Shown here piece after piece: positions 15,563 to 53,594 of a stretch of DNA of 64,000 nucleotides. The DNA is taken from assembly GCA_964016885.1 (NCBI GenBank), contig OZ024742.1, positions 120,156,001-120,220,000 of the forward strand, written 5' to 3'. The position numbers were made by a program, and so were the translations under genes. The DNA comes from Eledone cirrhosa. Its lineage: Eukaryota. How positions within the stretch are numbered: position 1 is the stretch's first letter; each line of letters begins with the position of its first letter. The notes beneath the pieces were generated by a model. It searched no databases and was not told the DNA's origin. It was given only the letters and a program-made list of their open reading frames with translations.

Positions 15563-15960
15563 ACTCACGTTATTTGTAAAACGTCGTGGTAAAGTTGTTT
15601 TTTTTTTTTTTTTTAATATATCTACAAAACTTGTATATTTTGTCCACCTTTCTGGGAATCGCAGGCGCAGTAGCCAGGTTTGTATACTTTTATAAATGAA
15701 AAAAGAAATGCTGACGGATATGGTAAATGTTTCTCGTCGACTATTAATTTTAAGTTAAGAAAAAATGTGTATCTAAAATAAGAGGGTGTCGCGAGTCAGC
15801 ACACGCCCTTGTTTCTCGAAAGCGAGAGCTGTGGGCGCTAAATGACGTGTTCAAATTTTATTTTTTGTTTGTCTAACTACTTTTCAGTTTCTTGTGTTGA
15901 CTTAGTTGCAAAAGCTACGTGTCGTCCAGCTCACGTAGGTAAGACGACTCGTTGCTGTCG
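15563..15960. promoter_or_regulatory. Probable CpG-enriched (bidirectional) promoter with non-coding first exons
   Basis: Local CpG excess in apparently non-repetitive sequence; GTCGCGAG 15788, TCTCGAAAGCGAGA 15814, TGACGTG 15843, TACGTG 15916 and CACGTA 15932; minus-strand donor GTGAGT at 15568-15563 and plus-strand donor AG|GTAAGA at 15938/15939. Confidence 0.55.

Positions 15961-16490: not shown

Positions 16491-16561
<71 letters not shown>
16491..16561. repeat. (CT)n(TA)n compound microsatellite
   Basis: Direct reading. Confidence 0.95.
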
Positions 16562-16564
<3 letters not shown>

Positions 16565-16639
16565 GGGTTCAATCGGGGGGTAACCACAGTAAGTAAGGTG
16601 CTCAATACATAGTAGAGTATAAATATTTAATATAGAAAT

Positions 16640-16690
16640 GGTTTCTACAGGACTAGAACTGTTTCATTTTGGAGAAATCATCAGGAAGCC
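16640..16690 (-). ncRNA. Type I hammerhead ribozyme-like motif
   Basis: Minus strand GGCTTC-CTGATGA-TTTCTCCAAAAT-GAAA-CAG(TTCTAGTC)CTG-TA-GAAACC: intact core, stem III CAG/CTG, stem I 5 of 6 pairs, weak stem II. Confidence 0.65.
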
Positions 16691-16729
16691 CTGATGATTT
16701 CTTCCGAACGAAACAGTTCTGTAGAAGCC
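16691..16729 (+). ncRNA. Hammerhead ribozyme-like motif, second arm of the foldback
   Basis: CTGATGA-T-TTC(TTCC)GAA-C-GAAA-CAG(TT)CTG-TA-GAAGCC; no good cis 5' strand for stem I. Confidence 0.5.
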
Positions 16730-16929
16730 AGTTCTATATTATATATATACACAGAGATATCCACGGTAAGTTGTGGGGTCTAGTCGGCATGAAGAACTCA
16801 ATGTAATCCATGTTGAAAATGTAGGTTAAAATAAATCCCGGAAAACAGAGTCATGATATAAGTTAAAACAATGAAATAAAAAATAAAGTCATTAGAAATA
16901 TACTTCACACACACACACACACACACACA

Positions 16930-17182: not shown

Positions 17183-18150
17183 AATGAAGGGGGAGGGGGC
17201 AGCCGGTCCATCGGGAATAGTTGCCAAGATGCTAAGAGCATTTGGGTCGGTAGGTCACACCTTAACCACATGTATTGTAAACCAAGTAATACTAAATGGT
17301 GTCAAATTGAATTATTGATGCAGCAGCACCATTGTCAACTGCTACAAGAGTAAAGGAAATGAACTGGATAGAGGAAACTATAGAGGTATAAAGCTGATGG
17401 ACCAGATCATGAAAGTAACAGAGTTATACCGCAGCTGATTAGGGATTGGGTAAATCTAGGTGAGACGCAGTTCGGATTTGAACCAGGCAAAAGCACCACA
17501 GATGCTCTCTTCCTGGTGGAGCAGCTACAGGAAAAGTACCTTGCTAAAAGTAAACTGCTCTACAAGGTATTTGTTGATCTGGAGAAAGCTTTTGACAGAG
17601 TGTCCCATGCCATAATCTGGTGGGCTCTTTGAAAACTAGGAGTAGATGTGTGACTTGTGAAGGCTGTACAAGCCATGTATAGGGGAGCAGTCATCAAAGT
17701 TAGGATTAATAATGACCATAGCGAGGAATTTAGCATATAGGTTGGTGTCCACCGGGACTGTTCTTAGCCCTCTCTTGTTTATTATCGTACTGCAGGCTAT
17801 AACAGGAGTTTCAGACCAGCTGCCCATGGGAAGTCCTTACACAGATGTTCTTACACTTATAGAGAAGTCTATGGTGGAACTTGAGAATAAGTTCCCTTGT
17901 TTGTTGGCCCTGCTTCCATGCTTGGAATTTCAAGTCAACCTGACAAAGACTGAGGTCCTAGTAAATAGAGGAGAAAACAGAACCCTGATCCTCTTGGGGA
18001 AATGGCCTCGTTCAGTGTGTAGGTATAAATTCCATCCTCTGTCCCAAATGCAAACTATGGGTACACAAGAGATGTAGTGAGATCTCACAAAGTTTAGCTA
18101 AGAATGTATGTTTTATATGTAGCAGTTGCACCGAGGCAGTAAGCAGGAAA
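17183..18150 (+). mobile_element. RTE-clade LINE reverse transcriptase fragment, decayed
   Basis: AAGPSGIVAKML, VNCYKSKG..LDRGNYRGIKLMDQIMK, QFGFEPGKSTTDA, FVDLEKAFDRV, VLSPLLFIIVL; multiple frameshifts. Confidence 0.9.
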
Positions 18151-31041: not shown

Positions 31042-31140
31042 TATAAAACCATATTTATTTCATTATATATATTTCAAGGATACCAAGTTACATTATGGTA
31101 TGCCTTCATCAGACAAAATACAATATATAACAGTTTTATA
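31042..31140 (-). ncRNA. Type I hammerhead ribozyme, left arm, uninterrupted
   Basis: Minus strand TATAAAAC..ATATTGTATTTTGT-CTGATGA-AGGCATACCA(TAATGTAACT)TGGTATCCTT-GAAA-TATATA-TA^ATGAAATAAATAT..GTTTTATA; long stems I and II; predicted cut between 31064 and 31063. Confidence 0.8.
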
Positions 31141-31286
31141 AATAGACATTGACGTACCGCTTTTAAAACAACGGTCAATTTTTAAAAGGGGTACGTCAAT
31201 GTCTATTTATAAAACTGTTATATATTGTATTTTGTCTGATGAAGGCATACCATAATGTAACTTGGTATCCTTGAAATATATATAAT

Positions 31287-53470: not shown

Positions 53471-53547
53471 TATATAATTATATACATATATACAGATACA
53501 TATACATACACACACAAATTATATATCTTTATTTTATGTAGAAATGA

Positions 53548-53594
53548 ATTCTACAGAACTAGTACTGTTTCATTCATATAAGATCACCAGGAAT
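53548..53594 (-). ncRNA. Degenerate hammerhead-like motif, same family as 16640
   Basis: Minus strand ATTC-CTGGTGA-TCTTATATGAAT-GAAA-CAG(TACTAGTT)CTG-TA-GAAT; core A6 changed to G. Confidence 0.5.

Follow-up and report, generated by a model that had tools for sequence, protein, structure and literature searches.

A probable head-to-head stub of a Hydra-clade Penelope-like element with paired hammerhead cores in Eledone cirrhosa

Inverted ends and hammerheads in described elements

Head-to-head arms, palindromic junctions and a one-sided tail have already been published for Penelope-like elements (PLEs), as described in the available portions of PMC3846280 and PMC8557442, and minimal hammerheads paired on opposite strands have been reported as well (PMC4209133, available portion); the other papers cited below were likewise available in part, and the comparisons refer to those parts. 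The inverted pLTR insertions of PLEs have been explained by self-priming on an antisense template (PMC3846280) or by endonuclease resolution. In vitro, Poseidon of Anolis used two internal starts and extended both target strands (PMC11167929). Drosophila Penelope has a TATA-less internal promoter and an intron before its hammerhead (PMC2377424, PMC4209133), and a TATA layout is therefore not general among PLEs. For L1 and SVA, an untemplated G at full-length 5' ends has been read as a copied cap (PMC4859970). A cap or strong-stop reading of PLE junctions was not found in the literature covered, subscription papers lying outside the search, and the available portion of a cephalopod repeat annotation paper (PMC13282606) does not discuss such structures.

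The present study analysed a window of 64,000 nucleotides from the genome of Eledone cirrhosa, to which all coordinates without a locus label refer, and followed up a foldback element with two divergent hammerhead cores. The element and its family resemble the Pen2/Pen3 inverted pLTR insertions of Adineta in their head-to-head arrangement, palindromic junction and tail at one end only, and a putative TATA box has been noted in the Adineta pLTR as well (PMC3846280). Compared with the published inverted pLTR insertions, however, the junctions here pile up at one base and show an extra G, and some of the arms do not overlap. The family would share with Poseidon two internal starts bounding the tail, an AT-rich target, extension of both strands and an uncleaved RNA template, whereas its tail is about 70 bases long (30-40 in Poseidon) and its hammerhead lies 180 bases before the ORF rather than over the ORF start (PMC11167929). 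The likeness to L1 twin priming consists in two opposite-strand primers leading to an inversion and in the untemplated G at full-length 5' ends, but both starts here appear to be fixed, internal and near the RNA 5' end, and usually copy overlapping sequence (PMC4859970). Metazoan non-LTR retrozymes are similar in their type I hammerhead, PLE relationship and non-coding nature, yet they form head-to-tail arrays, whereas the window copy is a head-to-head stub of the terminal repeat of a coding element (bioRxiv 10.64898/2026.07.22.740005). Head-to-tail joints do exist in the family (10 and 3 exact matches), but they vary and do not fall at the cut site.

The foldback element, its hammerhead and its parent

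Alignment of genome copies revealed that the foldback element spans 16562-16741, and is thus larger than the 112 nt originally described, the tail at 16562-16628 having been missed. The 112-nt stretch does fold as a single hairpin, as had been claimed (z = -12.5 on the plus and -11.2 on the minus strand, with 0 of 200 shuffles equally stable). The placement of the element between (TA)n tracts was right for one side, where the (TA)n target flank at 16735-16749 merges with the short end, and wrong for the other, where the tract lies 67 bases from the 112-nt stretch because 16562-16628 is the element's own tail. The left target flank proper is a (CT)n followed by a (TA)n microsatellite at 16492-16561, as read from the sequence and from family copies, which sit in (TA)n. 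Elsewhere in the window, a GTAAGA at 15939, a putative donor, ends a CpG-richer stretch (15780-15945) that is a possible first exon, and a fragment of a LINE reverse transcriptase, recognized by eye, is likely at 17300-17800.

Within the element, the long arm (16562-16690, minus strand) corresponds to the PLE terminal repeat from +1 to about +131, comprising hammerhead and tail, and aligned end to end with the natural copy L058 with 5 mismatches and 1 extra base in 132. It includes the tail (16562-16628, minus strand), a stretch bounded by two 3' end sites, a short one (+60 to +67) and a long one (+136), as delimited by the bimodal 3' ends of the family, and a complete type I hammerhead (16640-16690, minus strand) with a predicted cut at 16646/16645, supported by motif scan, family alignment and folding. 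The short arm (16691-16741, plus strand) was assigned by motif scan and alignment to +7 to about +62; it is without +1 to +6, and so carries a core without the 5' helix I strand, and has a 6-base loop III deletion relative to the family. The arms meet at 16685-16691 in the 5' strand of helix I, with +1, the putative transcription start, at 16690. The window copy, with its long arm reaching +1 and its short arm +7, is joined by the commonest junction of the family. Base 16691, a G on the minus strand, may be cap-derived or part of the other arm, and this junction is unable to show a cap G because that base also fits the other arm. A likeness to a Pol III B box, one base short of the consensus, lies at 16564-16574.

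Both of the cores predicted, one per strand, were recovered by motif scan. On the minus strand, CTGATGA (16684-16678), GAAA, a CAG/CTG helix III and TA were found, together with the helix I GGCTTC/GAAACC already named in the original prediction, which forms 5 of 6 pairs. On the plus strand, CTGATGA (16691-16697), GAAA, CAG/CTG, TA and GAAGCC were detected, with 2 of 6 helix I pairs available in cis. Rfam at gathering scores gave 0 matches within the window, hammerhead families included. The family consensus contains the type I core CUGANGA / GAAA / UH. Among 73 copies with their own upstream side, helix I reads AGATTC/GAATCT in 41 and GGCTTC/GAAGCC in 22, with pair 1 being A-U in 43 and G-C in 26 copies and pair 3 A-U in 42 and C-G in 30, and the helix II stem is kept while loop II varies. 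The covariation check suggested for the genome copies thus came out positively, in the form of two compensatory changes in helix I between two subfamilies rather than many independent events. Judged from these alignments, the hammerhead is a conserved structure in the family, in line with the minimal type I motif first proposed. The base of helix II is U-U in 71 of the 73 copies, in place of the canonical G10.1-C11.1 pair.

A search of the species' own genome (3.0 Gb) with 16562-16800 returned 6,700 candidates, and all 40 of those scored matched most of the first 190-200 bases; in the alignment of the top 30 copies, the unit begins at the left (TA)n. Exact-pattern counts, which are lower bounds and for which reversed controls gave 0, amounted to at least 256 genome copies for a 51-mer covering the entire hammerhead, at least 9,537 for a 21-mer of the family, and at least 2,482 and 8,070 for two 30-mers of the young subfamily. 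One family fragment recurs with identical flanks at L217, L219, L220 and about 12 further loci, and therefore travels inside another repeat. Twelve young hammerhead copies stand on one strand at about 1.08 kb spacing at G000:C1:83679793-83691713, a tandem array that could be retrozyme-like. A single diverged arm at 53530-53592, a relative of the window family, also adjoins (TA)n.

Some copies extend past the tail into an ORF, and tracing this ORF led to intact parent elements, supporting the PLE origin that had been proposed. The parent carries a 713-aa ORF with its ATG at +182, the terminal repeat directly before the ORF and again about 5 kb downstream, and a long TG/TA-rich region between the ORF and the 3' repeat, with about 2.5 kb of mixed low complexity (L275 4259-7000). 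The protein contains RWR at 38, DKT at 116, YRDD, CxCX5C at 566, IVY..YIG, CxxC at 666 and CxH at 694, while CX2-5CxxC is absent from it. With a reverse transcriptase plus a GIY-YIG at the C terminus in one ORF and hammerhead repeats at both ends, the parent has the layout of an endonuclease-bearing PLE; the Pfam GIY-YIG match is weak (E = 0.005, below the Pfam cut-off), and a search for a solved structure related to the protein found none. By its motifs, as defined in the available portion of PMC8557442, and its (TA)n target, the parent is a Hydra-clade PLE, and an assignment to Nematis was dropped because the motifs match the Hydra-clade definition. It shares with that clade RW(K/R), DKT, the CxCX5C linker, CxxC and CxH around the endonuclease end, the C-terminal GIY-YIG, the (TA)n target and, with many of the Hydra hammerhead motifs listed, the U-U at the helix II base. 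It differs in a hammerhead sequence unlike Hydra-1_Obim and the other listed Hydra motifs, in a longer loop III, and in a length of about 5 kb owing to the long TG/TA-rich 3' region, compared with under 3 kb in the clade (PMC8557442).

Other elements were encountered alongside the family. The Neptune-type element joined to the tail in L088 was rejected as the parent, since it has its own, different ends and the L088 locus is a chimera. At this locus (L088 / L131 6068-9928), a Neptune-type element truncated at its 5' end directly abuts a Hydra repeat with its long tail, which suggests a template switch between two PLE clades. A near-intact Neptune-type element with a 791-aa open stretch, an upstream ORF, its own ends and frequent inverted ends was identified at L176 1963-6955, with no match to the hammerhead of the window family. 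The window itself contains a second head-to-head hammerhead pair of an unrelated family at 31062-31286 (96% palindrome, long helix II, TATATA helix III), the arms of which run about 55 bases upstream of the cores, and in the flanks of copies no fewer than eight additional hammerhead families were observed whose helix III is palindromic (CTAG, TATATA, TGCGCA, GTAC).

Ends and junctions of the family

The window copy is probably best understood as a stub of a Hydra-clade PLE, likely inactive, in which the first 60-135 bases of the terminal repeat stand twice, start to start, in a TA microsatellite, and which would have arisen by paired internal priming on capped, uncleaved RNA. According to this proposal, a TATA promoter in the terminal repeat would place the start of a capped RNA on the first helix I base, the element's enzyme would cut both (TA)n strands, and two cDNAs would be primed on opposite target strands at about +136 and about +65 of the uncleaved RNA. 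Both cDNAs would extend toward the cap, opposite which the enzyme would often add a C, and their ends would be joined directly, via 1-3 bases of microhomology, or with a few filler bases; longer copies running past +1 would result from priming in that same transcript's downstream repeat. The stub, being without a promoter, would be transcribed only by read-through, and such RNA from either strand would fold as a hairpin, not a ribozyme. If both arms came from one RNA molecule, the overlap would need to be copied twice by strand displacement, which counts against this reading. For the family at large, we regard as about evenly balanced the statement that the transcript starts on the first base of the hammerhead, that two fixed internal starts, one per target strand, are used on capped uncleaved RNA, and that the thousands of stubs each consist of two strong-stop-like cDNAs joined at the cap.

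The 5' ends of 76 young arms fall at +1/-1 in 25 cases, at -2 to -5 in none and at scattered positions upstream in 21, whereas the other 30 continue past the end of the 244-250 bases covered. Per base, arms stop at a rate of 0.16 at this limit against 0.002, about 70-fold more often. Of 68 loci of the old subfamily with an exact hammerhead, counted after removal of two segmental duplicates, 48 have their 5' limit at +1, one of these (L129) being misclassified. Tail-anchored samples, which are blind to the hammerhead, placed 23 of 60 5' ends in -1 to +9 and 12 upstream, and in a separate, weak set of 100 arms, with subfamilies mixed and about 15 rows being one repeated fragment, 3 ran upstream of +1. 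In 63 of the 69 copies holding it, the TATA box TATAAATA starts precisely 30 bases upstream of +1, a spacing held in both subfamilies though their 22-base spacers and +1 base differ, and a CCAAT lies further upstream. A splice acceptor at +1 was rejected, given TC or CC at -2/-1 and no constant upstream exon, and cleaved RNA as the main template is not borne out by a clear pile-up at the cut site, with 3 of 60 5' ends in the tail-anchored samples lying within 2 bases of the predicted cut (1.4 expected if even), although a small share is possible.

At -1, the parent has a C. A G before +1 that the partner arm does not supply was found in 14 of 22 old and 6 of 9 young junctions and in 6 of 10 head-to-tail joints, or 26 of 41 when pooled (p = 2e-7 against 0.25 and 0.002 against 0.4). 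Junctions were classified by eye, and four ambiguous ones, three old and one young, were set aside; the samples consist of the matches met first along chromosomes 1-3 and were not drawn at random. About one third of the clean junctions are without the G. L382 consists of two full arms with a single G between them, and L404 has a G before +1 on both strands. It is possible, if rather unlikely, that these stops reflect a roadblock, i.e., a bound protein or an RNA fold on a longer transcript, with the same PLE origin and paired priming, and with the G coming from microhomology or from base addition by the enzyme. Untemplated base addition is a property of enzymes of this kind and counts for such a reading, as does the filler of 1-10 bases that is common at the joints. 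Nevertheless, a roadblock would have to act exactly 30 bases below the TATA box in two subfamilies with a different spacer and +1 base, the G excess persists in head-to-tail joints where neither side supplies a G, and the helix would already have been opened before the enzyme reached its 5' strand.

The 3' ends of the same 76 young arms cluster at two sites, with 42 at +52 to +73 (27 of them at +67) and 30 at +136 to +141, while 2 lie between the sites and 2 extend into the ORF. A tail pattern of this kind is attributed in PMC11167929 to two internal starts of reverse transcription. Palindromes with one arm reaching +1 pair a long with a short end in all 22 young cases and in 31 of 37 old ones, the old exceptions being 1 long/long case and 5 with an intermediate end. 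A third, looser boundary, at which the sequence is joined head-to-tail to the +1 of another copy, was observed just upstream of the ATG, about 30 bases past the long end (L187-L216); a template jump or the terminus of a short RNA could account for it.

An alternative to paired priming is that one strand loops back to copy itself, which is the origin put forward for PLE palindromes, with an antisense template, in the available portion of PMC3846280. A loop II variant is common to both arms in 10 of 10 informative young cases, indicating a single source for both arms, and in a few cases (L059, L286, L334) the complement of helix I itself serves at the joint, both of which would suit a fold-back. 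A copy cannot hold sequence that its template lacks, however, and the tail occurs on either arm: in 19 of 31 old and 14 of 20 young insertions it is the short arm that reaches +1. Moreover, the partner starts past the end of the +1 arm at +114 in L374, +120 in L389, +100 in L390 and +74 in L126, so that these arms do not overlap and neither was copied from the other, unless later deletion produced the arrangement; the 1-base spacer in L382 also argues against looping back. Self-copying is thus improbable as the source of the palindromes. Spacer flipping as the cause of tails on either arm was dismissed as not needed, such tails being already frequent in the young subfamily.

It is quite improbable that the palindrome instead spread as a non-autonomous, MITE- or retrozyme-like unit, with one master copy being amplified in full. 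Among the 30 copies most similar to the window copy, the majority do share its central junction, but these were chosen for likeness, and in unselected samples the same junction, one among many, has the tail on either side and both old 3' variants, and is therefore recurrent rather than inherited from one amplified master. The unit also has no promoter and is not arranged as head-to-tail repeats that meet seamlessly at the cut site. The inverted insertion foreseen in the original prediction is supported. The insertion is not a tiny element complete in itself: arms, ends and junctions differ from copy to copy as separate insertion events would predict.

Cleavage potential and meaning for the family

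The minus arm of the window copy has a C-A mismatch in helix I and another in helix II, these two broken pairs being due to two of its 5 mismatches to the natural old copy. In the window copy, keeping the hammerhead pairs costs 45 (minus) and 53 (plus) kcal/mol relative to the full hairpin, bearing out, as far as modelling goes, the earlier caution that the foldback may out-compete the ribozyme; even for the minus arm alone the cost relative to the best fold is 9.7 kcal/mol, compared with 1.0 (old) and 4.6 (young) kcal/mol in intact copies. Whichever strand is read through, the ribozyme arm follows its antisense partner in the transcript. The window copy thus probably cuts no RNA and is inert. 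A working two-way switch cutting host transcripts of either strand, as had been suggested, is highly improbable because half of helix I is missing from the plus arm, two pairs are broken in the minus arm, transcription reaches the antisense arm before the ribozyme and the hairpin is strongly favoured, even though both catalytic cores are intact in sequence and a lizard PLE hammerhead cuts only with protein help (PMC11167929, available portion), so that folding models may mislead.

By itself, the window copy is ordinary, and it is the family-level junction pattern that provides a testable lead on mechanism. The family is useful because the origin of PLE inverted ends and the role of the hammerhead are called open questions in the available portions of PMC8557442, PMC11167929 and PMC3846280. 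The young subfamily, with intact ORFs and thousands of near-identical stubs, allows exact predictions, namely an RNA start at +1, priming at about +65 and about +136 with one of each per insertion, and an extra G. If the proposal is true, the ribozyme would be an off switch, as a cut at +45 would remove the cap in the 5' repeat and both start sites in the 3' repeat, and PLE palindromes in the Hydra clade would be attributed to paired priming instead of antisense self-priming.
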